From assembly GCA_964386725.1 (NCBI GenBank), contig CAYLTX010000024.1, positions 1 to 24,253 of the forward strand: a stretch of DNA of 24,253 nucleotides, in the 5' to 3' direction. The DNA is from an uncultured Bradymonadales bacterium. Lineage in GTDB: Bacteria > Myxococcota_A > Bradymonadia > Bradymonadales > Bradymonadaceae. The position numbers and the translations under genes are program-made. Shown piece by piece: positions 1-19,914 of the stretch. Each line of letters opens with the position of its first letter. The first letter of the stretch is position 1. The notes beneath the pieces were generated by a model that saw only the letters and a program-made list of their open reading frames with translations, was not told the DNA's origin and did no database searches.

Positions 1-1110
1 GCGGTCAGTTATATCTGGGAGTTTGTCCCCGCCCATTTCGAGCTTCAGGAGCACCACCAGGAGCGTGCAGTGTGCGCGTGCGGATGCTTTCTGTACGGCC
101 CGACGCCCGAGCGCGTCGCCGACGGGGTCATCTACGGGCCGGGGCTTCACGCCGACGTGGCCGTCTCGAAGTGCGACGACAGCCTGCCGATTGAACGCCA
201 GGCCAAGCGGATTCGCCGGGCCGGCATTCCGATGAGCCGAAGCAGCCTCAACGACGTATTTCACCGCACAGCCGAGCTGCTCACGCCCATCTGGCGGCGC
301 ATCCTCGAGCTCATCGCCCAAAGCGAGCACGTCTCGGCCGACGAGACGCCGATCAAGGTCCAGGACAAAGGCAAATGCCGCAAAGGCTGGATGTGGACCT
401 TCATCGCCCGCGGCTTGGTGGCCTACGTCTTCAGCGCATCGCGCAGCGGGCAGACGCCGGTGGACGTGCTCGGCGAGACCAGCGGCACCATCCAGGTCGA
501 CGGCTACTCGGGCTACAACACGATTAGCTGCCCCGAAGGCCGCACCCGATGTGGCTGCTGGGCACATGCGCGCCGCAAATTCTGGGACGCCTTGAAGTAT
601 GCGCCCAAAGAAGCGAGGTGGGTGCTCGACCAAATTTTGAAGCTCTACGAGGTCGAATACGAGGCCCACGAAAAGAAGATCATGGGCAGCGAGGCTCACA
701 AATTTTTACGCCAGGCCAAATCAAAGCCGCTCGTCGACGGGCTCTTCGAGTGGCTCGACGACCAAAAAGACATATGGCCGCCCAAAAGTCCGCTGGGTGA
801 GGCCATCAAATATGCGATCAATCAAAAAGAACCCCTGTCACATTTTTTGGACGAGCCGAAGGTCCGGCTGGACAACAATTTGAGCGAGCGACATCTCAGA
901 TTGGTGGCGCTGGGCCGCAAAAACTTTCTATTCGTCGGCCACGACACCGGCGGCAAGAACCTGGCGATCTTGCAGACGATCGTTGCGAGCTGTGTCGCCA
1001 ACAAGATCAACCCGCAAGAGTACCTGACCGACGTGATCATGCGGGTGCAGCATCATCCGCAGTCACGCATCGACGAGCTGCTTCCCGATCAGTGGAAGCC
1101 GCCCGGCTGA
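1..1110 (+). CDS. tnpC: IS66-family transposase (TnpC), 5'-partial. The reading frame is open from base 1, so the N-terminus lies outside the window.
   Basis: The translation has the typical IS66 TnpC layout. There is an N-terminal Cys cluster (CACGC), then PIERQAKRIRRAGIPMSRSSL, HVSADETPIKVQ and the DGYSGY block. The C-terminal region carries CWAHARRKF and LDNNLSERHLR motifs. The same frame has no stop codon between position 1 and the annotated Met at 70. Confidence 0.85.
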   Translation, partial: AVSYIWEFVPAHFELQEHHQERAVCACGCFLYGPTPERVADGVIYGPGLHADVAVSKCDDSLPIERQAKRIRRAGIPMSRSSLNDVFHRTAELLTPIWRRILELIAQSEHVSADETPIKVQDKGKCRKGWMWTFIARGLVAYVFSASRSGQTPVDVLGETSGTIQVDGYSGYNTISCPEGRTRCGCWAHARRKFWDALKYAPKEARWVLDQILKLYEVEYEAHEKKIMGSEAHKFLRQAKSKPLVDGLFEWLDDQKDIWPPKSPLGEAIKYAINQKEPLSHFLDEPKVRLDNNLSERHLRLVALGRKNFLFVGHDTGGKNLAILQTIVASCVANKINPQEYLTDVIMRVQHHPQSRIDELLPDQWKPPG

Positions 1111-1274: not shown

Positions 1275-1609
1275 CTGCCGGACGGATACGCGGGGCTGAA
1301 CCGCGTTTTGGGACTATCAGCGCAGGTACATTGAGGTGTTCCCCGCGTCCGCGGGGCTGAACCGTGCGCGACCATCTTCGCCCCGCTTGCCCACTCGTGT
1401 TCCCCGCGTCCGCGGGGCTGAACCGCGCGCTGGGCTCAACGCCATTTCGGTGCAGCCGTGTTCCCCGCGACCGCGGGGCTGAACCGGGACTGTCTCCGCG
1501 TGAGCGGGGCCACCCGGTATGTTCCCCGCGATAGCGGGGCTGAACCGTGGATCGGCGACAACAATTATTACCGGTTCGCGTGTTCCCCGCGTTTAGCGGG
1601 GCTGAACCG
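1275..1609 (+). CRISPR. Small CRISPR array with type I-E-like repeats. It has 5 clear repeats plus a degenerate leading half-repeat. Consensus is GTGTTCCCCGCGTCCGCGGGGCTGAACCG (29 bp) with 32-bp spacers.
   Basis: Repeats lie at 1336-1364, 1397-1425, 1458-1486 (T>A variant), 1519-1547 (ATGTT...ATAG variant) and 1580-1609 (30 bp, TTTAG insertion). A half-repeat at 1275-1303 matches only the 3' CGCGGGGCTGAACCG. All five spacers are exactly 32 bp (1304-1335, 1365-1396, 1426-1457, 1487-1518, 1548-1579). The repeat closely resembles the E. coli type I-E repeat GTGTTCCCCGCGCCAGCGGGGATAAACCG. Confidence 0.85.
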
Positions 1610-1636
1610 CTGTTGGACGGCGGTATACCCTACTGC

Positions 1637-2414: not shown

Positions 2415-5400
2415 TCAGCGTTGCAGGCGGCGGCGTTGGGCGTCGGCGAGGCGGGCGGCTTGGGCGGCGCGGGTGGGGTGGTCTTGGGCGGTGAGGGTTT
2501 GGTGGGCGGCTTGGGCGGCCCAGAGGATGTAGGGGAAGACGAAGTCGAGGTCGGCGTGGAGGCGGGCGGCTTGGGCGTGGGCGGTGTCCCAGGCGTCGAG
2601 GTCGCCGAGCTTGGCGAGCAGGGGGAGTCGGGCGCTGTGGTAGACGAGGTGGTAGACGTAGCGGCCGTCGAGGTCGACCACCGCGCGCATGGGCTCGAGC
2701 AGGGCCTGGGCGCGCTGGAGTCGGTCGTCGGCGACCGCTGTGATCGCTGCGCCGGCGCGGGCCAGGTCGGTCAGCCGGGAGTCGACCGCGCCGAAGAGGT
2801 CGAGGGCGTCGCGGTAGATCTGCCAGGCTTCGGCGGCGTCGCCGCGCTCGGCGGCGAGGTCGGCCATGAGCCGGCGGGCCATGCCCATGTAGACGGGCAT
2901 GCCCGTGGAGTGGGCGATTTGGTGGGCGTGTCGGGTCAGCGTGCCGGCGGCGGCGAAGTCGCCGCGGAACCAGGCGATCTCGGCGCGGCCCTGGTGGCAC
3001 CAGCTCAACTCCTCGCGCACGCCGTTGCTCGGGTCCGCCCCGCCCAGCTCGATGGCCTCGTCGAGCAGCGCTTCGCCGCGGTCGAGTTGGCCGGCCAGCA
3101 GGCGCAGCCAGCCCTGGCCGCCCAGCGCCTTGACCTGCCCCTCGATGTCGCCGACCTCCTCGAAGAGATAGCTGGCGTGGTCGTAAAAATGTGCGCCGCG
3201 CTCGACGTTGCCGTCGAGCCTGTCCAGCTCGCCGAGGACGTAGGAGATCGTGGCCAGCCCGGCCGGGTCGTCGAAGTGGGCGACCTCCTCGAAGAATCGG
3301 TTCGCCCAGCGACGCGCGCGCTCGGGTTGGCCGATGATGCGGCTGATGTCGGCCTGCAGGGGCATGTCGGCGGCGCGCCGGGGATCGGTCTCGGGCAGAT
3401 CGAGTTTGTCGACGACCTGCCGGTATTGGTCCAGCGTGGCCCGCGCGGCGGCGAACGACGAGGCGCGCAGGTGCTCGCGGCCGCTGTCGAGCAGGGGCGA
3501 TAGCGCCCGGTGATATTCTTCGGCCAAGAGCAGGTGCTGGGCGCGGCGGCGCGAGCGGGCGATGTTGTCGGGCTGCTCGGCCAACATCCGGGCGCAGGCG
3601 GCGTGGAAATGCTTCCAGAGGCCGGCGTCGCGGGCGCGCTGCTCGAGCGTCTCTCGCAGCGACTCGGTCTTGAAGCGCCATCCGGTCGGGGTGGAGACGG
3701 CCAGGCCGTGGCGGCCGAGCTCGTCCCACAGCAGCTCGGGCGGCTCGAGGCCGAGCAGCTCGACGACGCGCTCCCACTCGGCGCGAACGGCGGTCGTGCC
3801 CAGCGCCGCGGCCAGCTCGAGCGCGGTGAGCGCGTCGTCGGCGGCGGCCGGGGCCAGCGCGTCGAGGTGTCGGTCCAGGCGTCTCATCCACAGCGATTGG
3901 ATGTCGTCGGGGAAGGCATGCGGACCCTCTTTGCGCAGGCGATAGCCGTCGTCGCACTTGTCCAGCAGGTCGCATTCGAGCCAGTAGCGCACCAGATTGG
4001 CCGCGAATAGCGGCACGCCCTCGGTGTGCTCGACGAGCCGGTCGGCGAGCTCGGGGCTGAGCTCGAGCATCTGCGTGACGAGCTCGCGCTGCTCGGCGTC
4101 GGAGAGTCGCGCCAGCTTCAGCCGGCGCAGATTGCTCAATGTGAGCAACTCGCGGATATGCGGGTCGGAGGTCGCCGCCAGTTGACCGCGCGCGGTGGTG
4201 ATCAACACCAGACAGCCCAGCGGATCGCTGGAGTCTTCGCGCAGCAGGTATCGGGCCAATTGGAGCGATTCGCTGTGCGAGTCGACCGTGTCGAGCCACA
4301 AGATGAGCGGGCGCTCGGCGGCCTCGAGCGAGAGAAAGCGGGTCAGCACCGCCAGCCGTTGGGTCGGGTCGGAGAAGCGGAACTGAGCTCCATCTCGACC
4401 TTTCGCCGGGGACGGCCGCGGAGACGGTCGCATAAACTCGGTCAGCGCGGGGATGTCGACCTCCTCGATGACCCGCGCCACCTTGGCATCGTCCAGGTGC
4501 AGCCGGCTTCGGAAGTGCTTTTCGAGTCGCCGGTGGACTTTGGAGCGCGACAGGTCCCAGGTCCGCAAGTGATCGCCGAGCGCGCGTCGTAGCTCGTCGC
4601 CGCCGCGGCTGCTCTCCTGGTGAGAGATGCGAATGACCTTGGCGAGGCCGAGCTCCTGGGCGCGCTGGGTAAACCAGCCGAGCAGATGACTCTTGCCCAC
4701 GCCGGCTTCGCCGTTGATGAGCACGCCGCGGGTGCGCCGCTGGCGAAAGACGCGGCCGAGCTCGTCCCAAAGCATGTCGCGCTCGGCGTGCCGGCCGACC
4801 ATGGATAGGCGACGCAGCCCGAATAAGCCGACGCTCGCGGCGTGACGCTGCGAGTCCGCGGCCGCGCGCGCCCTCGCCTGCCAATCGTTGGGGAAGCCGG
4901 GGCGGTCGTAGTCGGGCAGATCGACGTGGTCGGTCAACGAGAGGACGCGCGGGATCAACTCGTCGGCCTCGTCTGCGTTGGAGCGTCCGCCGGCCGCGCC
5001 CGCGTCGACGATGCTCGAATCCTCCCACAGGCCGACGGGGCGGTCTTCGGGGGCGAGCATGGATTCCAGCGCGGTGCGGTTCTCCATGACCTCGTCGTGC
5101 TCGGCGACTCGGCGGTGCTCACCGGCGCGGTCGACGCGTGTGTCGGCCAGCGAGGGATCGACCTCCAGGACCTCGTCGATGCCGATATGGGATTTGGTCT
5201 CGGCGGTGGCCAGCGAGGCGGCGTCGTGGGCGTCGGCGGCGTCGCCGGTCGGTGGGGCGGGCTGGACCAGCGCGTTGTCGTCGAGCAACAGCAGGTTCCA
5301 GGCGGCGTCGGCCGCCGATTGAAACCGCCCGCGCAGATCTTTGGCCAGCAGCACCTCCAACCACTCATCGAAGCCGTCTGGGACGGCAAAGCGGGGCTCG

Positions 5401-6140: not shown

Positions 6141-6391
6141 CGGTATTCCGGCCCGTCAAATACCTTTGATAATGAGGTGGATAGTAGTGTTTTTATAAGC
6201 CAATGTCCAAAGCGTGCGGATGCAATGCGAATAGTGTGATTTCGGGGTAATTTGTTGTTGAGGGGGCAAAAGACAGCCCCCCGAAAATCTTTATAAAGGG
6301 CTCGGCGTAGCGAGGCTATCGCGTACTAAGAACGTCTATTCTCTCGACTTGAGCCGGTGTGGGAGTACTTTTGGGGCGCGTCGGTGCCCTT

Positions 6392-6417
6392 ACTCGTCAG
6401 CCCAACTCGTCAGCCCA
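6392..6417 (+). promoter_or_regulatory. Perfect tandem 13-bp direct repeat (ACTCGTCAGCCCA x2), 14 bp upstream of the bphO start. It is a candidate operator or regulator-binding site.
   Basis: This is seen directly in the sequence. It lies in the divergent intergenic region between the kinase gene (minus) and bphO (plus). Confidence 0.25.
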
Positions 6418-6430
6418 GCAACGGTTTGCC

Positions 6431-7027
6431 ATGGAACGAAAACTGAGCGATCGGCTCAAAGCCGGCACCAGAGAGCAGCACGAGGCCGTCGAGCGCGCGG
6501 TCGAGCTGGACGCGGTGGCCGCCTCGCGGGAGGCATACCTCGCGCATTTATGCGCGCTGTGGGGCGTCCATGCGCCGCTGGAGGCCCGGCTGGCACGCCT
6601 GGACTGGGCACAAGTGGGCGTGGACTTCGAGTCTCGTCGGCGCGTCGAGTTGCTGCGAGCGGACATACGGGCGCTGGCGGCCGAGATCGACGTCGAGGCG
6701 TTGCCCACCTGTGAGCGGCTCGCGCCGGTGGAGACCATCTGGCAGGGGCTGGGCAGTCTCTACGTGCTCGAGGGCTCGCGGCTCGGTGGCCAGATGATCG
6801 CGCGGGCGCTCGAGCAGCGCCTCGGGCTGAGCCCCGAGCGCGCATGCCGATTCCTGTCGAGCCACGGCGTGAGGCTCGGGCAGAGTTGGAAGGCGTTTAA
6901 ATCTGCGGTCAACCGCGCCGGGGCCGAACACCCGGAATACGCTGCGACGGTGGTCGCCTCTGCAAACGACACCTTCGCGTCCGTCCAGCGCTGGTTCCAA
7001 GGTGAAGCGATTGAGCAGGCGAGGTGA
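6431..7027 (+). CDS. bphO: Heme oxygenase, the biliverdin-producing enzyme of the bacteriophytochrome operon.
   Basis: The N-terminal LSDRLKAGTREQHEAVE block is heme-oxygenase-like, with a proximal His in the conserved T..QH context. GSLYVLEGSRLGG matches the heme oxygenase signature. Its stop overlaps the phytochrome start region (TGACTCATG). The preferred start is the ATG at 6431 (MERKLSDRLK...); an alternative upstream ATG lies at 6359. Confidence 0.8.
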   Translation: MERKLSDRLKAGTREQHEAVERAVELDAVAASREAYLAHLCALWGVHAPLEARLARLDWAQVGVDFESRRRVELLRADIRALAAEIDVEALPTCERLAPVETIWQGLGSLYVLEGSRLGGQMIARALEQRLGLSPERACRFLSSHGVRLGQSWKAFKSAVNRAGAEHPEYAATVVASANDTFASVQRWFQGEAIEQAR

Positions 7028-7030
7028 CTC

Positions 7031-9400
7031 ATGAGCACCGAGAGATCCCGAGACGACGAGCTCGACCTGTCGGCCTGCGCCGAAGAGCCGATCCACATCC
7101 CCGGGGCCATCCAGCCCCACGGCCTGCTGCTCGTGCTCACCGAGCCCGAGCTCGAGGCCGTCCAGGTCAGCGAGAATGTCGAGGGGGTGCTCGGACGCGG
7201 CTGCGAAGAGGTGCTCGGCCGACGTGTCGAGCACCTCTTTGCCGAGCCTCGAGCCGAGCAGTTGCGTGCCCAATTGGCGACAGCGGGCGCGAATTATAGC
7301 GCGCCGCTGACGGTCGCCGTCGACGTCGAGCCGGCCGGGCAGTTGTGGTTCGACGCCCTCTGCCACCGCCACCAGGGGCTGCTCATCGTCGAACTCGAAA
7401 ACGCCCGTCCCAGCCGCGAAGACACGCAGTTGGGTCAACAGGGGCTGGGCCACCAAGCCGGCGCGCTGCACGCCCAGCTTCTGGGCGGCGCCTTCGGCAA
7501 GCTGGGCGCCGCGAGCGATCTGGTGCAGATGTGCGAGTTCATCGCCCGGGAGGTGCGCGATATCACCGGCTTCGACCGCGTCATGGTGTACCGTTTTCAC
7601 GAGGACAAACACGGCGAGGTCATCGCCGAGGCGCGCGCCGAGGAGGTGGACTCGTTTTTGGGGCTGCACTACCCCGCCTCGGATATCCCCGCGCAGGCCC
7701 GACGGTTGTATCGGCTCAACTGGCTTCGGCTGATCGCCGACGTCGATTACGAGCCGGCGCGCCTGGTCCCCCGGCAAAATCCGCATACCGGCGCCACCCT
7801 CGACATGAGTCACACCGGGCTTCGAAGCGTCTCGCCGATCCACTTGAAATATCTGCAGAATATGGGCGTGGGCGCCTCGATGTCGATCTCGCTGCTCGAG
7901 GGCGACGAGCTGTGGGGACTGATCGCCTGCCACCATCGAAGCGCGAAATTCGTGCCCCCCGCGGTGCGCTCGGCTTGCGAGCTGCTGGGCACGGTGTTGA
8001 GTCTGCAACTGGCCACGCGCGAGCTCACCGAGAACACGCTGCGTCGTGCCCGGCTCCAAACCCTTCAGGCCGAGCTTCTGCGAAGCGTCGCCGAGCACCG
8101 CACGGTCCTCGGCATGGCCCAGAACCGCCAAAACACGCTGCTCGATTTTGCCGACGCTACCGGCGCGGTCATTCAATTCGACGGACAGTGCCGATCGGTG
8201 GGCTCGACCCCCGACGATGACTTTATCGACGCGCTCATCGAATGGGTTTGCGAGCGTGCCGACGACGCCGTCTGGCACACCGACCATCTGTCGGCGGCGT
8301 ATCCGCCGGCCCGCGAGCATATTGATACTGCCAGCGGTCTTCTGGCCATCATTCTGTCTCGCACTGCCGGGGACGTGGTGCTGTTCTTTCGGCCGGAGGT
8401 CGTGCGCACCGTCGACTGGGCTGGAAACCCCAACAAGCCTGTAGACAAGGAGCCTATAGACAAGGAGCCTATCGACAATAAGCCCGTCGAGGCGGGTGCC
8501 GTCGCAACAGTGGGCGATATGCAGATGCTCACGCCTCGAAAGAGCTTCGAGTCATGGAAGGAGACCGTCTGCGAGCGATCGATCGCGTTCTCGGAGGCCG
8601 AGGTCGACAGCGCCCGCCAGCTCCACAACTCGCTGTTGACCCACATCATCGAGCGCGCCCAGGAGCTCGCCGAGGTCAACAAGGAGCTCGAGCGTAGAAA
8701 CGAGGACCTCGAGTCCTTCGCGTACGTGGCCTCCCACGACCTCAAGGAGCCGCTTCGCAGTCTGCGCGGCTACGCCCAATATCTGGACCGCGAGTGTTGC
8801 GACACCCTCGACGAGCACGCTCAGTCCAAGGTTCAAGGCATGCTGCGGCTGACTCAGCGCATGGACTCGCTGCTCGATTCACTGCTGCACTACTCGCAGG
8901 TGGCGCAGAGCGAGATCCAGCGCGAGCCCATCGATCTGAACCGGCTGCTCGACGAGGCGCTCGAGATCTTGGACCAGCGCTGCGAGGAGAGCGGCGCCGA
9001 CATCCGCGTGCCCCGCCCGCTGCCGCAGGTCGAAGGGGTGCATGTGCGGGTGCGCGAGGTACTGGTCAATCTGATCGGCAACGCGCTCAAGTACACCGAC
9101 GAGACCGACGCCATCGTCGAGGTCGGCTACCAGACGCCCGAAGAGCATGGCGAAGAAGGCCCCCTTCGTATCTACGTGCGCGACAACGGCATCGGAATAA
9201 AGGCGCGCTATCACGAGCGCGTCTTCGAGCTATTTCGCCGTCTGCACGAGCGCGACGCCTATGGTGGAGGCGCCGGCGCCGGGCTGACCATCGTCAAGAA
9301 GATCGTCGAGCAGCACGGCGGGCGCATCTGGGTGGACTCGGAGTTCGGCGAGGGGACGACCTTTTATTTTACGCTCGAGCCGGAACCCAAAGGCGGCTGA
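7031..9400 (+). CDS. bphP: Bacteriophytochrome histidine kinase with PAS-GAF-PHY-HisKA-HATPase_c domains.
   Basis: An N-terminal Cys in the LSACAEEPIHIPGAIQPHG context marks the biliverdin attachment region. The GAF DIP motif is HYPASDIP. The PHY tongue motifs are W(A)G (DWAGNP) and PRxSF (LTPRKSFESW). The H-box is FAYVASHDLKEPLRSL. The N, G1 and G2 boxes are LVNLIGNALKYT, DNGIGI and GGGAGAGLTIVKKIVEQHGGRIW. Confidence 0.92.
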   Translation: MSTERSRDDELDLSACAEEPIHIPGAIQPHGLLLVLTEPELEAVQVSENVEGVLGRGCEEVLGRRVEHLFAEPRAEQLRAQLATAGANYSAPLTVAVDVEPAGQLWFDALCHRHQGLLIVELENARPSREDTQLGQQGLGHQAGALHAQLLGGAFGKLGAASDLVQMCEFIAREVRDITGFDRVMVYRFHEDKHGEVIAEARAEEVDSFLGLHYPASDIPAQARRLYRLNWLRLIADVDYEPARLVPRQNPHTGATLDMSHTGLRSVSPIHLKYLQNMGVGASMSISLLEGDELWGLIACHHRSAKFVPPAVRSACELLGTVLSLQLATRELTENTLRRARLQTLQAELLRSVAEHRTVLGMAQNRQNTLLDFADATGAVIQFDGQCRSVGSTPDDDFIDALIEWVCERADDAVWHTDHLSAAYPPAREHIDTASGLLAIILSRTAGDVVLFFRPEVVRTVDWAGNPNKPVDKEPIDKEPIDNKPVEAGAVATVGDMQMLTPRKSFESWKETVCERSIAFSEAEVDSARQLHNSLLTHIIERAQELAEVNKELERRNEDLESFAYVASHDLKEPLRSLRGYAQYLDRECCDTLDEHAQSKVQGMLRLTQRMDSLLDSLLHYSQVAQSEIQREPIDLNRLLDEALEILDQRCEESGADIRVPRPLPQVEGVHVRVREVLVNLIGNALKYTDETDAIVEVGYQTPEEHGEEGPLRIYVRDNGIGIKARYHERVFELFRRLHERDAYGGGAGAGLTIVKKIVEQHGGRIWVDSEFGEGTTFYFTLEPEPKGG
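8432..8491 (+). repeat. In-frame tandem repeat (~15-bp units) encoding KPVD-KEPID-KEPID-NKPVE, located inside the PHY-domain tongue of bphP.
   Basis: The sequence is AAGCCTGTAGAC AAGGAGCCTATAGAC AAGGAGCCTATCGAC AATAAGCCCGTCGAG. It is locally AT-rich with rare codons (ATA, GTA, AAT) for this genome. Confidence 0.8.
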
Positions 9401-9436: not shown

Positions 9437-10591
9437 ATGACCTACGAATCGCCCCTTCACATCCTCATCGTCGACGATTGGCCCGAGCATCGGCAGGCGC
9501 TCAAGCGCGAGTTGTTGGTGGGCTTCGAGCGTCGACTCGACTTCACCGAGGCCGCAACGGGCGAAGGGGCGCTGGCGCTGGATTGCCTGCGAGCCGGCCG
9601 CCGGCCTGACGTGATGCTGCTCGACGTCAATCTGCCCGATTTGAGCGCCTTCGAGGTCCTCGAAGAGCTCGCCGAAAGGCACGGCCGGGTCGACCTTCCG
9701 GTGGTGACCTTGACCAGCGCCGCCGACCATCAGAAGGCAACCAGCGCCCTCGAGGCAGGCGCCCAGGACTTCCTCGACAAGTCCCACGTCGACGCCGAGT
9801 TGCTCACGCGGGTGGTGCGCAACTCCATCGATCGCTTTCGCCTGCTCGAGAAGGTCCACGCCAGCGAGGAGCGGTTTCGCCGATTTCTGGCCTATATGAG
9901 CCACGAGATCCGCACACCGATGACCGCGATCCTGAGCTACGCCGAGCTGTTGAACTTCCGGCTCGACGAGCCCGAGGCCCTGCAGTACGTCGGCACCATC
10001 ATGCGCAACGGCGAATATCTCATCGAGATCATCAACGACATCCTCGATCTGTCCAAGATCGAGGCCGGCCACCTCGAGATCGACCCCCAGCAGTTCTCTC
10101 TGCCCGAACTGGTCGAGGACGTCGTCTCCTTGATGCAGGTGCGCGCCGAGGAGAATTCGCTGCCGCTGCATGTCGAGTACGACGGGCTCATCCCCGAGAC
10201 CATCGTGAGCGACCCGGTGCGCCTGCGCCAGGTGCTGGTCAACTTGCTCGGAAACGCCATCAAATTCACCGAGGACGGCGAGGTGCGCCTGCGGGTGGCC
10301 ACGGCCTCTCACCAACTCGACCGGATCGTCTTCGAGGTCACCGATACCGGCATCGGGATGACCCAGGACCAGGTCGATCGCCTCTTCGAGCCCTTCCAGC
10401 AGGGCGACGCCTCGGTCACTCGCCGCTTTGGCGGCACCGGCCTGGGATTGGCCATCAGCAAGCGGCTGGTCGACCGGCTCGGCGGCGACATCGAAGTCGA
10501 AAGCGAATTTGGCCGCGGCAGTTCGTTTCGCTTCTGGATCGACAGCGGCCCGGTGGCCAGGACCTCGCTGGTCGCCCCGCCGGGGCGCTGA
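9437..10591 (+). CDS. Hybrid response-regulator receiver / histidine kinase (REC-HisKA-HATPase_c), the last gene of the phytochrome operon.
   Basis: The REC domain shows ILIVDD, LLDVNLPD (phospho-Asp), VVTLTS and DFLDKS. The H-box is YMSHEIRTPMTAI. HATPase motifs are LLGNAIKFT, DTGIGM and GGTGLGLAISKRLV. The RBS AGAGGGA lies ~7 nt upstream. Confidence 0.88.
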   Translation: MTYESPLHILIVDDWPEHRQALKRELLVGFERRLDFTEAATGEGALALDCLRAGRRPDVMLLDVNLPDLSAFEVLEELAERHGRVDLPVVTLTSAADHQKATSALEAGAQDFLDKSHVDAELLTRVVRNSIDRFRLLEKVHASEERFRRFLAYMSHEIRTPMTAILSYAELLNFRLDEPEALQYVGTIMRNGEYLIEIINDILDLSKIEAGHLEIDPQQFSLPELVEDVVSLMQVRAEENSLPLHVEYDGLIPETIVSDPVRLRQVLVNLLGNAIKFTEDGEVRLRVATASHQLDRIVFEVTDTGIGMTQDQVDRLFEPFQQGDASVTRRFGGTGLGLAISKRLVDRLGGDIEVESEFGRGSSFRFWIDSGPVARTSLVAPPGR

Positions 10592-11595: not shown

Positions 11596-11885
11596 TGCGC
11601 GGAGGTCGCTGAGGCGCGGAGGTCGCTGAGGCTCTGAATCGCGGAGGTCGCTGAATCGCGGAGGTCGCTGAAGGCTGGAGCGCTAATCGCGGAGTAGCTG
11701 AAGAAGACGCGAAGGCACGCGAAAAGAGCTGAAAAAGGCCGCCCGTTGCGGCTCGGTGGTCGGTTTGGGAGGTCTTCAGTGCCTTTCGAGGGACTCAGCG
11801 GTGTCTTCAGCTTTTTGCGATCAGTGTTCAGCCCCTCCGCGAGATCTGCGTCTCTGAGTTTCAGAACCTCCGAGTTCACCGAAGC
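11596..11885. repeat. Copy 1 of a ~270-bp dispersed repeat with an internal imperfect palindrome. It contains 4 tandem CGCGGAGGTCGCTGA units.
   Basis: It aligns at roughly 85% identity (my estimate) with 14284-14545. Shared blocks are CGCGGAGTAGCTGAAGA..GCGAAGGCACGCGAAAAGAGCTGAA..GGGAGGTCTTCAGTGCCTTTCG..TCAGCGG.GTCTTCAGC..GTTCAGCC..GCGAGATCTG.GTCTC.GAGT. The GCTGAAG and CTTCAGC halves form inverted arms. Confidence 0.8.
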
Positions 11886-13365: not shown

Positions 13366-13791
13366 CTACGCCGCCACTGTAAGATCGAGGATGGTACGCG
13401 AATATCGACGCAGATCGTCGAGGTGATTTTCGACGATGTCGCGCACGATCTCATTGTCGAGCGTGCCGTAGGCGTGGACGGCGATATTTCGAAAGCCGAC
13501 CATCGAAATCAACGTGGCCGTGAAGTCCTCGTCCAAGATCTGACGGTCTCTGAGCATCTCGAAGGCCTGCGCAGCGCTCTTCGGTGTGGCCCATGCATTC
13601 TCGGCGATGAGGTGATTGGCGAGGTCGATGCTCGCCTCGACGGCGCGCTGGAGGTAGAGCGCGCAGAGGTCGTCGACGATCCACGGCTCGAGGGCGGCCT
13701 TTGGGCCGGTCACCTGCTCGATGCGCTTGAGGGCCTCGTCGATATTGGCCAGCTTCCCCAATACGATATCTTCGTCGTGGTCGAGGCTCAT
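13366..13791 (-). CDS. hepT: HepT-family HEPN-domain toxin (DUF86) of a HepT/MntA toxin-antitoxin pair.
   Basis: The Rx4HxY motif reads FRNIAVHAY. The start ATG overlaps the MntA stop in an ATGA arrangement (13788-13791). The extended 290-aa ORF in the track is a frame artefact. Confidence 0.85.
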   Translation of the reverse strand: MSLDHDEDIVLGKLANIDEALKRIEQVTGPKAALEPWIVDDLCALYLQRAVEASIDLANHLIAENAWATPKSAAQAFEMLRDRQILDEDFTATLISMVGFRNIAVHAYGTLDNEIVRDIVENHLDDLRRYSRTILDLTVAA

Positions 13792-14207
13792 GAGCGAATC
13801 CTTCGGATGAGCGCCTCGTCGATGGGGCGGCGAAGATGCTTCCAGTCCTCGTAGATGGACGGCGTGTACATCTTGAACTCGGCCAGCGCGCGCTCGTCGC
13901 GGCAGACGATGAGCCGACCGCGCCGCAGGACCTGCATGTTCAGGATGGCGCCGGCGTCGAGCAGGTCGACCAGGTCGACTGTGCGGCCGACGACGGATGC
14001 CAGGCGCCCGGACAGCTCCATGAGCTCGTCGACTTCGAGGCGGCGGCCGGCGTCGACGGCGATGTCGAAGTCGCTGTCCGGCCCCAGACGATCGGCCGCG
14101 GCCGAGCCAAATACGTAAGCAAAGCGCAGCTCGGGGAGGTGCTCGGTGAGTGTTGAGGCGATCTCGTCGGCGCGGTCGATCTTTGGTTGTGGCTGCTCTG
14201 AGGTCAT
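13788..14207 (-). CDS. mntA: MntA-family nucleotidyltransferase antitoxin (minimal NTase).
   Basis: The GSx10DxD motif reads FGSAAADRLGPDSDFDIAV. It lies upstream of and overlaps hepT. Confidence 0.85.
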   Translation of the reverse strand: MTSEQPQPKIDRADEIASTLTEHLPELRFAYVFGSAAADRLGPDSDFDIAVDAGRRLEVDELMELSGRLASVVGRTVDLVDLLDAGAILNMQVLRRGRLIVCRDERALAEFKMYTPSIYEDWKHLRRPIDEALIRRIRS

Positions 14208-14283
14208 CGTGGCGCCGGCTGTTGGGTGAAAGGCTCACTCTAACTTCAAATTAGCACCAACACTACACGCGGACAATGTTTGG

Positions 14284-14545
14284 AGGCGCGGAGGCCGCTG
14301 AAACGCTGAAACGCCGAGGTCGCTGAAGGCCGGAAGCGCTGACCGCGGAGTAGCTGAAGACACCGCGAAGGCACGCGAAAAGAGCTGAAGACGGCCGTAC
14401 ATTGCAGCTATGTGGTCGGGTCGGGAGGTCTTCAGTGCCTTTCGCGGGATTCAGCGGGGTCTTCAGCCTTTCGCGATTAGCGTTCAGCCACTCTGCGAGA
14501 TCTGAGTCTCCGAGTCTCTGAGTCTCCGAGTCTCCGAGCCTCCGC
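14284..14545. repeat. Copy 2 of the ~270-bp dispersed palindromic repeat. It ends in 5 tandem 8-mers (GAGTCTCC-like) abutting the stop codon of the 1789-aa gene.
   Basis: It is homologous to 11596-11885 in the same orientation. The microsatellite CTGAGTCTCCGAGTCTCTGAGTCTCCGAGTCTCCGAGCCTCCG lies at 14500-14543. Confidence 0.8.
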
Positions 14546-17500
14546 TACTCCCCCTCCGGCACCGCCGCCCCACGCAGCGCGTCGAGCTTTTTCATCACCT
14601 CGTCGAGCTGCGCATCGCGCTTCTGATCGTCGTCAGCTTCCCGATAGACGAATTTCGCCAACGGCAAAATCGCGCTCTCGATGAGCCCGAGCTGCGACTC
14701 GAGGACCTCGCCGAGCTTGGTGGGCATATCGCCGACGACTTGGACTTCGAGCTTGGCCTTTTGCAGGGATTGGAGCGCTTGGGCCAGCGCCTGAGCGGCG
14801 GCTGGTTCGGTTTGTTGGTTAGTCGGTTCTTGGGGTCCCCTCCGCCTCGCTTCGCTCCGCACCTCCCCCGCTCGGGGAGGGGATATCTGCCTCTCTGCGG
14901 CCTTCTCTGCTGAGTCGGCGGCGCGCTCCAGCGCACCGCGGATGTGGGTGAGCTCGCCGCTGAGGCTGTCGGTGGAGAGCGCCGTGTGGACGTCTTCGAG
15001 GCGTTGGACGAGTGTGGAAAGGGGGCCGGCGACGCGGCTGACGGGGTCGTCCTCGCCGCCGCCCATCATCTTGCGGCGCTTGAACTCGCGGCGGATTTCT
15101 TCCCAGCGGGCTTCTTTTTCGGGCGTCATCTTGCCGCGCAGCTCGGCCAGTTTGAGCAGGTTTTGCTCGCTGCCGGTGGTCAGCGTCTGGGCTTCCTGGT
15201 TGTAGTGGTTGTCGATGAGCTGCTCGACCTCGTCGTCGTTCATAGCCGAGGCGAGCTTCTCGGTCATCTTATTCATGTTGCGGTAGCTGCCCTGCAGCTG
15301 GAAGGGCGGTTCGGTGCGGTACTCGTCCTTCTTGCCCGCCGAGATGATGTACTGCTGGTTGACCTTCAGCACCACGTCGCGGATCTGCATGAGCTTTTCG
15401 AGCACGTTGACGATCTCGCCGGCCTCGACCGAGGAGTAGGCGTGGTCGAAGTCGCTCAGGGGGACTTGCTTGCCCTGGGCCATCTTCAAAAACCGGCCGA
15501 TATCGGCGCGCTCGCGGGTGACCAGCGGGGCGGTGACCTTGTTGGAGGTCAGCGCGTTCTCGATATAGCTGAGCTCGAAGACTTCGCGTTTGCCGTCGAG
15601 GATATCGCCCAAATTGTAAGTGTCGGCGCGGTTGGCGAGCATGTCCGGGATGGTGAAGCGCTCGCCGCTTTCGGTATACGGGTTGCCGGCCATGACCACC
15701 GCGAAGCGCTTGCCGCGCAGGTCGAAGGTCTTGGTCTCTCCGTTCCAGACGCCCTCGATGCGACGCGTGGAGTCGCATAGCGAGATGAATTTTTGCAAAA
15801 ACTCGGGGTGGGTGTGCTGGATATCGTCCAGATATAGCATCACGTTATTGCCCATCTCGAGGGCCTGGTTGATCTTTTCGACCTCCTGGCGGGCGGTGGC
15901 GTTGGGGGCCTCGGTGGCGTCGAGCGAGGTGACGTCGTGGCCCAAGGACGGCGCGTTGATCTTCATAAACATCAGGCCGAGCCGGTCGGCGACGTACTCC
16001 ATCAGGGTCGTCTTGCCGTAGCCGGGCGGCGAAATCAGCAGCAAAAGGCCGCTGCGATCCGAGCGGCTGTCCTCGCCGACGGTGCCCATCTGCTTGGCGA
16101 GGTTGTCGCCGATCAGCGGCAGGTAGGCCTCGTCGATGAGCCGGTTTCGCACAAAGCCGCTGAAGACCTGCGGCTCCATATCGTCGACGCGCAGCCGGCG
16201 GCGCTCGCGCTCGAGCAGCGCGCGGCTCAGCCGCTTATACTCTTTATAGGCGGGCACGTGCTCGTCGACGTAGCGGCGAAGCCGGGTCAAAAACTCGTCG
16301 AGGCGAAGCTCCATCGTGCCGTTGTCGATGCGCGGATGCTGGCCGAGCAGCTCTTTGACCTGGGTCGCGGTCTGCGCCGAGGTGGTCTGGCGGTCGATGT
16401 CCCCGTCGGTCAGGATCAGCGCGGCGACCTCGGGCACCAGGTGCGCGAGGTCGTCGTCGAGCTGGCTTTGCTCGAAGCCGGAGACCCAATCGACCATCAG
16501 ATCCCAGCTCGCGCTGAGGTCGCCCTCGAGCTTCTCGAGATCTTCGTCGAAGTCGAGGTGGGAGTGGTGGCGGTCGAGGTAGTCGTAGAAGGCTTTGCGC
16601 AGATCGGTGGCTTCGCCGCTGGCGATAAACCGGGGGTCCTGGTCGACGAGCTCTTCGGCGAGGTAGCGGCCGGCTTCGCGGGCGAGGCCCGTAAGCTGAT
16701 GCGCTGATGCGCTGAAGCGGGCAAGCTGCCCGCGCTCCATGAACTCTTCTATCTCCGTCGCTAATTCTTGGCCCAGCCGCTCGAGCGGCTCACCGTGGGC
16801 GAAGACCTCGCGCAGCCGGCCGAGGCTGACGCCGCGGCGCGCCCACCTCCGGCGCTGCTCGGGCTGGTCGGCGTAGGCCCAGAAGACCGTGGCCAGCGCG
16901 CGCGCCTCGGGGGTGTAGCGCAGCAGGCCGGCGGTGGCGTACATGCCCATGAGCTTCTTGAGGATCTTGATCGTATCGTCGTCGTGCACGCCGCGCTCAT
17001 AGCCCTCGTCGTAGCGCTCGTTCATGCGCTCGCGGATGAGCTTTCTGAGCGTGTCGGTGTCGCTGAGCAGGGCGTGCAGCTCGTCGACTGTAAGCTCGCT
17101 ATCGTTCTTCTCGGCCTCGAAGAGGATCGTCGCCGCCAGGTATTCGGCGCGGTAGACCTCGTCGGTCTCCGAGATGAGGTGCTGGTCCCAAAAGGGCCGC
17201 GTCTTGGCGAAGTCCTCGTCGTCGATCGGCTCGAGAAAGTCGGTGCCGGTGATATGCAGCGCCATACGTCTTTGGCCACCGTCTGGGCCGCCATCATCGT
17301 GGGGCACCATGGTCATCTCGGCCGGCTGCGTGTTCACGCTGAACCGGTGGCCGCCGAATTTGATGACGTTGTCGCCGCCCTCGAAGAGGTCGAGCTTGTC
17401 GCGCAGTTGGCGGACGGCCTTGTCCTTGGCGGCCTTGAGCTGGGTGTCGATGTCGTCGGCTTTGACGTCTTCTTCGAGCTCGCGCAGCCGCTCGACCAGG

Positions 17501-19914
17501 TCGCGCACCTTCATGACCATCGCGTCGGAGGCGAAGTAGCCGTTCAGATCCTCGACCGACTCCATATTGGAGGCGCGTCGGACCACGCCCTCGAGGATGC
17601 GCTCGGCGCTGCGGGCGATATTATTGGCCTGGCGCTGGCGCTCCTCGAGGAGCTGCTGCTTCCTGGTCTCGAAGACCTCGTAGACCTCGTCGCGCTTCTC
17701 GGCGAGCTTGCCCAAGAAGCCGTCGAAGTCGCTGAAGCGACTCTCGAGCTCCTCGAGCTGGACGGTCAGCCGGGTGAGCTGCTCGTCGCAGGCGTCCGGG
17801 GTGTTGGCCATGCCCAGGGCGCTGGTCACGCTCTGGCTAAAGAGCTGGAATTGGACGGCAAATTCGGCTTTGCCCTCTTTTTCCTGCAGCTCTTTTTTAT
17901 TGCGATCGAGCTTCGCCCGGGCGCGGTTTTGGCGGCTGAGCGCCTCCCCGATATTCTCCAGGATCCGGGTGCGCTTATTGGGGTCGTCGACCTTCAGGCC
18001 GCTGACGACTTCGGTGAGCAGGTTCAGCCCGAGGTTGATCTCGTCGAGCTTCTCCAACATCTCGTCGGCCTGGCGGGTGTCCTCGAGCTGGTCGACGGTC
18101 CCTTCGATCTCGGCGAGGCCGTCCTGGTAGGTCGACAGGGCGTCTTCGCGCAGCAAAAAATCGACGGTCGCCCGGCTGAGCTCGTCGTAGCGATCGCTGA
18201 CCTCTTCTTCGAGCTCTTCGAGGCGCGCGAGGTCGATATAGCGCATCTCCTCGAGGGTGATCAGCGCGCCGCGGTGCTTGCGCAGCTTGTCGAGGCCCTC
18301 GACGAAGCGGTCGATGCGCTTCCAATCGTGGTAGCGCACGTCAGTCATCAGGCCGCGCTGCTTTTGCACGGCCTCGGCGAGTGCGTCGCGGGCCTGCTCC
18401 TTGCGGGCGGTGACCTTCTGGAACTCGTCGATGACCAGCTCGGCGGTCTCGATGATCTCGGAGGTGACGCTGGCCAGGTTCTCGGCCTCGTCTTTGTCGA
18501 GCCAGAAATACGCGTCGAGCAGCCTTTGGGCGTTGGTGATCAGCGCCTCGTAGACCGGCAAAGACGGCTCGAGATCGCCGATCATCGAGCAGAGGCTATA
18601 GGCGTCGGAGACCCCGCGGACCAGCTCTTTATTGCCGATGCTCGACAGCAGCGAGTCGTCGGTGGGCTGGTTGGCGGCATGCTCGTCGCTGATAAACGGC
18701 GTCTGCCAGATCTGCATCGGGTGGATGCGGGTGGGCTCGTCGCCCATGAACCGAAATACGATCATCGTGCCGTCGTCGAAGAGGCTGTAGCCGTGGCAGT
18801 TGATCGGGTTCTGGACGCCCTTTTGGATGACGTTATAGGCGAGCAGCAGGTAGCTGCCGTCTTGCGGGTGGTAAAAGACGTATAAAACGTCCTCGCCGTT
18901 GGCCGATTTGATGACGCTGTGGGTGCGCAGGCCCTCGACGGCGCCGTCGAATTTGCGAAATTGGCCGTTCGACAGCGCAATGCCGCCCGGGAAGATCACG
19001 CCCTGGTCCTCGGGCAGCCGGATGCAGGATTGGCCGATGGCGTCGATGCGCTCGATCTGCTGGGTGAGCTTATTATAGATGAAGTAGCGCCAGCGCTCCT
19101 CGCGGTACGGCAGGATCTTGAGGAGGATCAGATTGCCGATCTCGGCGTAGCCGAATTCCCCGTCGCCCAGCGACTGGTGTTTGTCCTCGACCGGCTCGTT
19201 GTAGATGCCTTTGCCGTCGTCGGTATTGTCCTCGATCTTGATGGTCAGATCGCCGCCGACGGTCTCGACGAAGACCTCGTCGAGGATGCTGATATGCGGG
19301 TGGTGGCCGGTGACGTGGTCCTCACGGGTGACCGTGCGCCACTCGAAGTCGTGAGCCTCGGGCGGCTTGAGATCGCGGTCGCCAGCGTTGTCCAGATATT
19401 CGATATTCTCGGCCGCATCGAGCCCCCAGCGCAAAACGCGGGCATCGTCGAGGGTCGAGCCGACCTGGAAGAGTGCGAGCAGCCGGCCCTCCGGCTTGAG
19501 CAATTGCCGCAGCCGCGCGTCCTTATAGTAGGTATAGAGCTCGTCGAAATCCTCGAGGAAATCCTTGTCGGCCAGGAAGTTCTCGCCGCCGTCGAGCGGC
19601 ACCGTCTCGAGCTTGAAGCCGTCGTCGGAGGTCTCGAAGGCGTGCAAGCTGAAGACGTCGTCGACCTCGGTCTTGGTCTTCAGGCCGATCTTGACGTTAT
19701 AGCCAAAGAGCAGCCTGCCGCCGATGGTGACGATGTCCTGCGGGATGCAGTTATTCTCGGTGCGGATGCGCTCCTGGCCGACCACCGTCATCTCGACGCC
19801 GCCGAACATCGCCTCGCGCTTCTCATTGAGGCGATCGGTCTTGTCGGCGAGCCGCTGCGCCTGATCCTCCAGGCGCTTGCGGATGATGTCGTAATTGCTG
19901 GACTCGATGGACAT
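14545..19914 (-). CDS. Very large (1789 aa) protein. It has an N-terminal ~450-aa globular region, a long central coiled-coil/helical region and a C-terminal AAA+ ATPase (AAA_5 / MoxR / dynein-like P-loop). Function is unknown.
   Basis: Walker A is LLLISPPGYGKTTL, Walker B is NVMLYLDDIQH and sensor-1-like is AVVMAGNP, at about aa 1280-1400. The coiled-coil region has extensive E/K/R/L-rich heptad-like segments. The start ATG overlaps the flotillin stop (TAATG), indicating translational coupling. Confidence 0.85.
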   Translation of the reverse strand: MSIESSNYDIIRKRLEDQAQRLADKTDRLNEKREAMFGGVEMTVVGQERIRTENNCIPQDIVTIGGRLLFGYNVKIGLKTKTEVDDVFSLHAFETSDDGFKLETVPLDGGENFLADKDFLEDFDELYTYYKDARLRQLLKPEGRLLALFQVGSTLDDARVLRWGLDAAENIEYLDNAGDRDLKPPEAHDFEWRTVTREDHVTGHHPHISILDEVFVETVGGDLTIKIEDNTDDGKGIYNEPVEDKHQSLGDGEFGYAEIGNLILLKILPYREERWRYFIYNKLTQQIERIDAIGQSCIRLPEDQGVIFPGGIALSNGQFRKFDGAVEGLRTHSVIKSANGEDVLYVFYHPQDGSYLLLAYNVIQKGVQNPINCHGYSLFDDGTMIVFRFMGDEPTRIHPMQIWQTPFISDEHAANQPTDDSLLSSIGNKELVRGVSDAYSLCSMIGDLEPSLPVYEALITNAQRLLDAYFWLDKDEAENLASVTSEIIETAELVIDEFQKVTARKEQARDALAEAVQKQRGLMTDVRYHDWKRIDRFVEGLDKLRKHRGALITLEEMRYIDLARLEELEEEVSDRYDELSRATVDFLLREDALSTYQDGLAEIEGTVDQLEDTRQADEMLEKLDEINLGLNLLTEVVSGLKVDDPNKRTRILENIGEALSRQNRARAKLDRNKKELQEKEGKAEFAVQFQLFSQSVTSALGMANTPDACDEQLTRLTVQLEELESRFSDFDGFLGKLAEKRDEVYEVFETRKQQLLEERQRQANNIARSAERILEGVVRRASNMESVEDLNGYFASDAMVMKVRDLVERLRELEEDVKADDIDTQLKAAKDKAVRQLRDKLDLFEGGDNVIKFGGHRFSVNTQPAEMTMVPHDDGGPDGGQRRMALHITGTDFLEPIDDEDFAKTRPFWDQHLISETDEVYRAEYLAATILFEAEKNDSELTVDELHALLSDTDTLRKLIRERMNERYDEGYERGVHDDDTIKILKKLMGMYATAGLLRYTPEARALATVFWAYADQPEQRRRWARRGVSLGRLREVFAHGEPLERLGQELATEIEEFMERGQLARFSASAHQLTGLAREAGRYLAEELVDQDPRFIASGEATDLRKAFYDYLDRHHSHLDFDEDLEKLEGDLSASWDLMVDWVSGFEQSQLDDDLAHLVPEVAALILTDGDIDRQTTSAQTATQVKELLGQHPRIDNGTMELRLDEFLTRLRRYVDEHVPAYKEYKRLSRALLERERRRLRVDDMEPQVFSGFVRNRLIDEAYLPLIGDNLAKQMGTVGEDSRSDRSGLLLLISPPGYGKTTLMEYVADRLGLMFMKINAPSLGHDVTSLDATEAPNATARQEVEKINQALEMGNNVMLYLDDIQHTHPEFLQKFISLCDSTRRIEGVWNGETKTFDLRGKRFAVVMAGNPYTESGERFTIPDMLANRADTYNLGDILDGKREVFELSYIENALTSNKVTAPLVTRERADIGRFLKMAQGKQVPLSDFDHAYSSVEAGEIVNVLEKLMQIRDVVLKVNQQYIISAGKKDEYRTEPPFQLQGSYRNMNKMTEKLASAMNDDEVEQLIDNHYNQEAQTLTTGSEQNLLKLAELRGKMTPEKEARWEEIRREFKRRKMMGGGEDDPVSRVAGPLSTLVQRLEDVHTALSTDSLSGELTHIRGALERAADSAEKAAERQISPPRAGEVRSEARRRGPQEPTNQQTEPAAAQALAQALQSLQKAKLEVQVVGDMPTKLGEVLESQLGLIESAILPLAKFVYREADDDQKRDAQLDEVMKKLDALRGAAVPEGE

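Follow-up and report, generated by a model that had tools for sequence, protein, structure and literature searches.

We analysed a contig of 24,253 nucleotides (nt) from an uncultured Bradymonadales bacterium of the family Bradymonadaceae (GenBank accession number CAYLTX010000024.1, assembly GCA_964386725.1, positions 1 to 24,253 of the forward strand; this whole stretch is called the window). It carries the gene of a bacteriophytochrome (BphP) histidine kinase with a repetitive insertion in the PHY-domain tongue, the element at the centre of phytochrome allostery. The domain order of the product is PAS_2-GAF-PHY-HisKA-HATPase_c, and the Pfam E-values are 2e-24 for PAS_2, 7e-15 for GAF and 2e-47 for PHY. 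The PHY match is split into two parts, the first of which stops within the repeat tract, at residue 475. Directly 5' of bphP lies bphO, coding for the heme oxygenase that supplies biliverdin, and the hybrid kinase encoded 3' of bphP is the likely downstream partner of BphP. The features are listed in Table 1.

Table 1. Genes and sequence elements of the bphP locus, with window coordinates
Feature	Position	Strand	Sequence or evidence
bphO, heme oxygenase, directly 5' of bphP	6359..7027	+	Pfam Heme_oxygenase, E = 3e-17
bphP, bacteriophytochrome histidine kinase, 789 amino acids (aa), complete open reading frame (ORF)	7031..9400	+	Pfam
Second lineage-specific 15-nt insertion, QLGQQ (5 aa)	7426..7440	+	Absent from L001 and P0003
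W463-A-G, tongue motif, entrance side	8417..8425	+	W463 and G465 invariant in 77 homologues
Four in-frame 15-nt tandem units, NKPVD/KEPID/KEPID/NKPVE	8432..8491	+	Tandem Repeats Finder, unit map, distance matrix
Unit U1, NKPVD	8432..8446	+	AAC AAG CCT GTA GAC
Perfectly periodic 31-nt core	8442..8472	+	TAGACAAGGAGCCTA x2 + T; 16 matches in a run at offset 15
Unit U2, KEPID	8447..8461	+	AAG GAG CCT ATA GAC
Unit U3, KEPID	8462..8476	+	AAG GAG CCT ATC GAC
Unit U4, NKPVE	8477..8491	+	AAT AAG CCC GTC GAG
Non-repetitive tip remainder, AGAVATVGDMQM (12 aa)	8492..8527	+	Alignments
P502-R-K-S-F, tongue motif, exit side	8534..8548	+	P502, R503, S505 and F506 invariant in 77 homologues
Response_reg-HisKA-HATPase_c hybrid kinase, 3' of bphP	9437..10591	+	Pfam

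By every sequence criterion the window protein is a member of the BphP histidine kinase family. It has the PAS_2-GAF-PHY module, the Cys, DIP and His residues of the chromophore pocket, the W(G/A)G and PRxSF motifs of the tongue, the HisKA/HATPase_c output and the linked heme oxygenase gene. Conservation was scored on an alignment of 77 homologues, and all columns invariant among them are retained, including D218-I219-P220, H271 and H301 besides the tongue residues in Table 1. Cys16, the predicted biliverdin attachment residue, and H569 (in SHDLKEP), the predicted HisKA phospho-acceptor, are also kept; each is conserved in at least 90% of the alignment. The same architecture, N-terminal Cys, DIP, WAG/PRxSF and adjacent heme oxygenase are shared with SaBphP1/2 (Stigmatella aurantiaca), PsBphP1 (Pseudomonas syringae), DrBphP (Deinococcus radiodurans) and Cph1 (Synechocystis), and SaBphP1/2, PsBphP1 and Cph1 are the best solved relatives. 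Solved canonical BphPs show 31 to 42% sequence identity to the window protein and target-normalised template modelling (TM) scores of 0.72 to 0.88 to the models in the red-absorbing (Pr) state. It departs from the family in tongue length (+25 residues relative to DrBphP, compared to +0 to +10 in the family; PMC12362586), where the family range is descriptive and not a functional criterion.

The window tongue reads ...FFRPEVVRTVD-W463AG-NP-NKPVD-KEPID-KEPID-NKPVE-AGAVATVGDMQM-LT-P502RKSF-ESWKETV. A preliminary description of this DNA had proposed a tract of 15-nt tandem units inserted exactly between the WAG and PRxSF motifs, and the sequence bears this out. Tandem Repeats Finder reported a period of 15 with 2.9 copies, 92% match and a score of 72 (alternatively 3.6 copies with 84% match). 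The tandem array is not a chance product, because arrays with a score of at least 66 appeared only 0.05 times per shuffle when the window was shuffled 40 times with dinucleotides preserved. The 20 repeat-encoded residues consist of four Lys, four Pro, three Asp, three Glu, two Asn, two Val and two Ile, a composition that would be typical for an extended, hydrated segment. U2 and U3 differ in a single synonymous position (ATA/ATC, ATC being the preferred Ile codon), and the outer units U1 and U4 show 3 to 6 mismatches in 15 bases to U2/U3. The duplication that arose last is plausibly the 31-nt core, and no other part of the tract is a plausible substrate for slippage today. A Logan assembly of SRR15425352, which may share reads with the window assembly, is identical to the window base for base over 3412 nt, tract included. 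The allele is known from this one genome and one read-set assembly.

Relatives were searched for in a collection of 5.8 billion sequences. Only three proteins showed more than 53% identity to the window BphP, all of them annotated as Persicimonas sp. metagenome-assembled genomes (MAGs), and a genome scan gave L001 as the sole close relative. One capped protein search with the 97-aa tongue segment alone was uninformative, with five word-sharing candidates and no significant match, and in a metagenome scan with an alignment of the three-sequence clade all relatives had 46% identity or less and none was close. The outgroup P0003 (73% identical) has a canonical tongue with one unit and a spacer of 16 aa between the motifs (WAGNPRKPVE-RTDGGDK-LTPRESF). 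L001/P0002 (86% identical, a Persicimonas MAG) has two units and a spacer of 21 aa (WAGDPNKPVE-NRPVE-PADEAEV-LTPRKSF). The bphP genes of the window and L001 share 90% nucleotide identity and are separated by two indels only, 45 nt in the tongue and the 15 nt of the QLGQQ insertion.

Comparison of the units suggests their history. U1 differs from L001 unit 1 (AAT AAG CCT GTA GAA) in two of 15 bases and U4 from L001 unit 2 (AAT AGG CCC GTC GAG) in one base; the single unit of P0003 (CGC AAG CCC GTC GAG) is identical to U4 in the last 12 of 12 bases. By sequence, the two L001 units have their counterparts in U1 and U4, and U2 and U3 are the additional copies. From the unit matches and the counts in the relatives, unit number would have gone from one to two in the common ancestor with L001 and from two to four in the window lineage. 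The tract thus very likely arose in steps, by tandem duplication of the conserved KPVE segment that the gene already had. The earlier proposal of replication slippage holds as the best account, given copy numbers of one, two and four among the relatives (P0003, L001 and the window) in the comparison of orthologues that had been suggested with it. The tract shares with slippage-made repeat expansions in protein surface loops a unit that is a multiple of 3 nt, adjacent copies, a gradient of identity from young to old units and intermediates in relatives. It is unlike the usual cases in that it lies in a photoreceptor signalling element and not in a surface or cell-wall protein, and has four copies only. 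A part of the extra length is not repetitive: the tip remainder is 5 aa longer than PADEAEV in L001 and RTDGGDK in P0003.

Spacer length, counted by pattern from W[GAS]G to PRxSF with both motifs excluded, was compared in several homologue samples, and the spacer of 36 aa in the window BphP lies well beyond the usual range (PMC12362586 for the published tongue lengths). The spacer is 11 to 21 aa in about 330 of about 345 homologues measured, and 16 or 17 aa in 108 of the 119 best database homologues (the rest have 15, 20, 21 or 27 to 28 aa). It is 12 to 19 aa in 78 diverse BphP loci from species-representative genomes and Joint Genome Institute (JGI) metagenomes, and 11 to 27 aa in 134 representatives of 50%-identity clusters. 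Against the solved structures of FiDCB (9jry) and SaBphP1 (6bao) a gap of 19 to 20 residues falls exactly at the repeat. Canonical BphPs range from 11 aa in DrBphP, as derived from its W451 and R466 (PMC12362586), to approximately 16 to 17 aa. In a survey of 404 BphPs, tongues had 0 to 10 residues more than that of DrBphP, most often 5, and varied only in the tip loop before PRxSF, which is the site of the window insertion (PMC12362586). The window tongue is 15 aa past the maximum of that survey. The statement that tongue length is tightly conserved was therefore too strong as first made, in view of the published variation at the tip and of outliers with 27 to 28 and 159 aa; a spacer of 36 aa is nevertheless unusual.

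The longest spacer found is 159 aa, between WAG and PRQSF of P0087 (898 aa, 47% identical to the window BphP), a protein that was missed by the initial motif pattern search. A 95% identical copy with equal length (P0273) is found on a second contig. The P0087 gene (L163 927..3623, Longimicrobiaceae-like) is part of an intact bphO-bphP-response-regulator operon, and its low-complexity insert is located at the same site as in the window, after NPEKPV and before LHPRQSF, is rich in Ser, Gly, Asp and Ala and has a recurring SGDA motif. Tandem Repeats Finder detected no DNA tandem repeat in this 159-aa insert; it cannot therefore be ascribed to recent slippage and differs in this respect, as in length and as an independent event, from the window tract. 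Between P0087 and P0273, 17% of the insert residues differ compared to 2.6% elsewhere (Fisher p = 1e-10), an evolutionary rate about 6.5 times that of the remainder of the protein, while the insert length is the same. This pattern is what would be expected of a tolerated, weakly constrained loop. Four other proteins (P0030, P0031, P0034 and P0149) have tips of 27 to 28 aa ending in ...P(V/T)P(T/R)LHPR(K/R)SF, which appear to be a separate, independent expansion of the tip loop. Judged by their sequences, large expansions of the tip loop would have arisen at least three times independently (the window, P0087/P0273 and the 27- to 28-aa group).

In characterised BphPs both tongue motifs dock on the GAF domain close to the chromophore; the Arg of PRxSF pairs with the Asp of DIP in Pr, and the Ser bonds to the same Asp in the far-red-absorbing (Pfr) state (PMC6126659, PMC11316798). 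The segment from PRxSF on converts from beta-strand to helix, PRxSF being the start of the Pfr helix (PMC6126659, PMC11316798). An AlphaFold2 model built from the 77-sequence alignment has a mean predicted local distance difference test (pLDDT) value of 86.4. It shows a Pr-like hairpin with strands at 459-464 and 508-513 and a short extra ladder (472-474/499-501). In the ten-residue blocks of 471-500, pLDDT averages 55, 48 and 49, with values below 50 at 482-486 and 489-496. The best Foldseek matches are mostly Pr-state BphPs (SaBphP2, PsBphP1, SaBphP1, Agp1 and Cph1), with target-normalised TM scores of 0.84 to 0.92 for photosensory-module chains. The two anchors are unchanged, as are the residues next to them (WAGNPNKPV... 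and ...LTPRKSF), including the nearly invariant K469 and L500. In the model the insert is placed in the variable tip loop, outside the refolding strands and helix.

Selection on the receptor was estimated by the method of Nei and Gojobori. For the window and L001, the ratio of non-synonymous to synonymous substitution rates (dN/dS) amounts to 0.22; against the outgroup P0003 it comes to 0.26. Codon changes were assigned to branches by parsimony with P0003 as outgroup: the window branch has 43 synonymous and 17 non-synonymous changes, and the L001 branch has 24 and 25, respectively. Nothing in these counts points to relaxed constraint in the window lineage, whose insert is the larger one.

We interpret the insertion as a tolerated, lineage-specific expansion of the tip loop in an otherwise canonical biliverdin-type BphP histidine kinase, with a probability of roughly 70%. 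In this mechanism the native 15-nt unit encoding (N/R)-K-P-V-E, right after W-A-G-N-P, would have been duplicated in tandem step by step, presumably by slipped-strand or unequal-exchange events, and the loop would have gained another 5 aa outside the repeats. The unit duplications together with the 5-aa gain account for the spacer of 36 aa instead of 16 to 17. Substitution patterns, the AlphaFold model and structures in the literature suggest that the 20 added residues, with their high content of Pro, Lys, Asp and Glu, most likely form a flexible, solvent-exposed excursion; this is likely because the anchors are intact and because, in characterised phytochromes, the segment between the motifs loops out at the hairpin's far end. 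Refolding of the Pr beta-hairpin into the Pfr helix and control of the kinase should then stay operative. The independent insertions in other lineages, the 159-aa case in an intact operon and the DrBphP chimaeras together argue that the tip is a permissive site; in those chimaeras, tongues with +5 residues kept prototypical photoswitching (PMC12362586).

It is also probable that the BphP still functions and that the insert affects Pr/Pfr stability or reversion only in degree, if at all. The likeliest phenotype, speculatively, would be a quantitative shift in Pr/Pfr stability or in the rate of dark reversion, because closing a longer loop would cost entropy or because contact to the N-terminal extension would be altered. 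Loss of function or on/off switching would not be expected. The insertion is a length variant within a known family, without a new mechanism or kind of system, and it is not unique, as the Longimicrobiaceae-like insert is larger.

Several points weigh against a tolerated expansion. Tolerance is deduced by analogy, and no BphP with such a long tip loop has been characterised. A very recent insertion would leave no signature of relaxed selection yet. Any lineage-specific insert that lacks aligned homologues would be given low pLDDT, which fits disorder but does not prove it. The order of the duplications rests on few sequences, with three clade members in the databases searched. In Pfr, the N-terminal extension touches residues near the third position before PRxSF (PRxSF-3; PMC11316798), and in the window PRxSF-3 is Met499 and its neighbours are altered, which may allow a stronger effect on the photocycle.

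A measurable re-tuning of the photocycle by the expanded tip loop is doubtful but worth considering. The Pr hairpin would be destabilised, dark reversion changed or the Pr/Pfr balance made temperature-dependent, and the Persicimonas-like alleles with one, two and four units would form a series that sets the kinetics. If true, tip-loop length would be a previously unrecognised tuning dial in phytochromes.

It is unlikely that the insertion cripples tongue signalling and leaves a receptor that is decaying or turning into a light-independent kinase, as the preliminary description had considered in suggesting that light signalling could be disabled. Chromophore-output coupling requires the tongue (PMC11316798, PMC6126659), and the length excess over the 404-BphP survey would fit such damage. 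The ORF is intact, however, with every invariant residue retained, and the dN/dS value and branch counts above speak for continued constraint. U2 and U3 differ only synonymously, and toward the preferred codon. The insert is confined to the variable tip loop and spares the refolding parts (AlphaFold; PMC12362586), and bigger natural insertions persist within intact operons.

A gain of function by positive selection, with the Pro- and charge-rich KEPID segment serving as a docking or linker peptide at the tip that contacts a partner or the sister protomer, is improbable. Amino acid preservation between U2 and U3 despite the nucleotide change, and a P-x-D/E motif with a 5-aa period in four of four units, would be in its favor. 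The motif is found in no homologue, though, and the one capped tongue-only search gave no significant match. AlphaFold confidence is low in this region and the model implies no contacts, and the analogous 159-aa insert evolves like an unconstrained loop.

Even less probable is a contingency-like tract, as first raised for this repeat, in which frequent gain and loss of 15-nt units would produce subpopulations with different receptor kinetics. The differing unit numbers among related lineages and the perfectly periodic core are consistent with it. A contingency tract would be expected to have several identical, slippage-prone short units, and here the near-identical units are two only, with one mismatch and a core of 31 nt, the outer units being diverged from them. 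Changes in length stay in frame, and therefore no on/off switch results. The copy number is the same in the two assemblies (possibly from shared reads), and the lineages that differ in it are at least 10% diverged, which fits rare events.

The composition of the tract had been taken as a hint of foreign origin, on the ground that ATA, GTA and AAT are rare codons. Among the window genes ATA is indeed rare (0.05 of Ile codons), as is GTA (0.03 of Val codons), and so is CCT (0.05 of Pro codons), but AAT is not (0.27 of Asn codons), and bphP has a worse 20-codon window than the one over the tract. The GC content around the tract is about 0.55 to 0.57 compared to 0.64 in the whole window. The strictly conserved flanking codons (GCT GGA of WAG and CCT CGA of PR) are equally rare in the genome. 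The rare codons of the tract are explained by copying, because CCT GTA is already present in unit 1 of the two-unit relative L001, and by sequence the ATA codon of U2 is GTA plus one transition. A foreign insert would have no native source and be atypical compared to its flanks; the units copy the gene's own motif, the flanks are just as unusual, the same sequence is present in a second assembly and the 60-nt tract is shorter than one sequencing read. Foreign or artefactual DNA is effectively excluded by these findings (the L001 comparison, the second assembly and the unit distances).

Recent work has considered tongue length among the traits of bathy versus prototypical phytochromes ('Traits of Bathy Phytochromes', PMC12362586), and among the top-ranked literature matches there is no mention of Persicimonas together with phytochromes. 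The window BphP and the 159-aa case indicate that the natural range of the tip loop is far wider than the reported +0 to +10. As a permissive insertion site the tip could be useful for tags or binding peptides in optogenetic BphPs, and the series of one, two and four units offers ready natural variants for relating loop length to the Pr/Pfr equilibrium.

The second lineage-specific insertion in bphP, QLGQQ, lies in a low-confidence post-PAS segment (pLDDT below 50 at residues 135-137). It resembles a weak tandem copy of the LGHQA codons 3' of the insertion. The bphO-bphP gene order is also present at L001 and at L163, and the Response_reg/kinase neighbour of bphP at L082 (a 73%-identical relative). 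At L082 a gene (3610..4073) for TspO/MBR, a tetrapyrrole-binding protein, comes after bphP and the response regulator/histidine kinase gene; its position is taken in the window by a short-chain dehydrogenase/reductase (SDR) gene on the opposite strand.

Elsewhere in the window, an Rfam scan at gathering thresholds gave no match, and thus no RNA element over the tract. A small CRISPR array is found at 1277..1610 with a 29-nt repeat (GTGTTCCCCGCG...GCGGGGCTGAACCG) and a period of 61 nt. It has five good copies starting near 1337, 1398, 1459, 1520 and 1581 and a degenerate copy near 1277, and the repeat is presumably type I-E-like. An ORF for an IS66-family transposase (70..1110) adjoins the array, and no cas genes were detected among the Pfam-scanned ORFs of the window. 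Two intergenic tandem arrays are located at 11597..11702 and 14504..14544; one has a period of 17 with about five copies and the other consists of five copies of GAGTCTCC. The GAGTCTCC array is directly upstream of a 1789-aa ORF (14545..19914, minus strand), which encodes a giant protein with DUF3686 ('ATPase involved in DNA repair'), DUF7902 and AAA domains. Three ORFs without a Pfam match come after this gene. It is adjoined by the gene of a HepT-like ribonuclease domain protein (13366..14238, minus strand), and the region of the two genes may be a defence-type neighbourhood.

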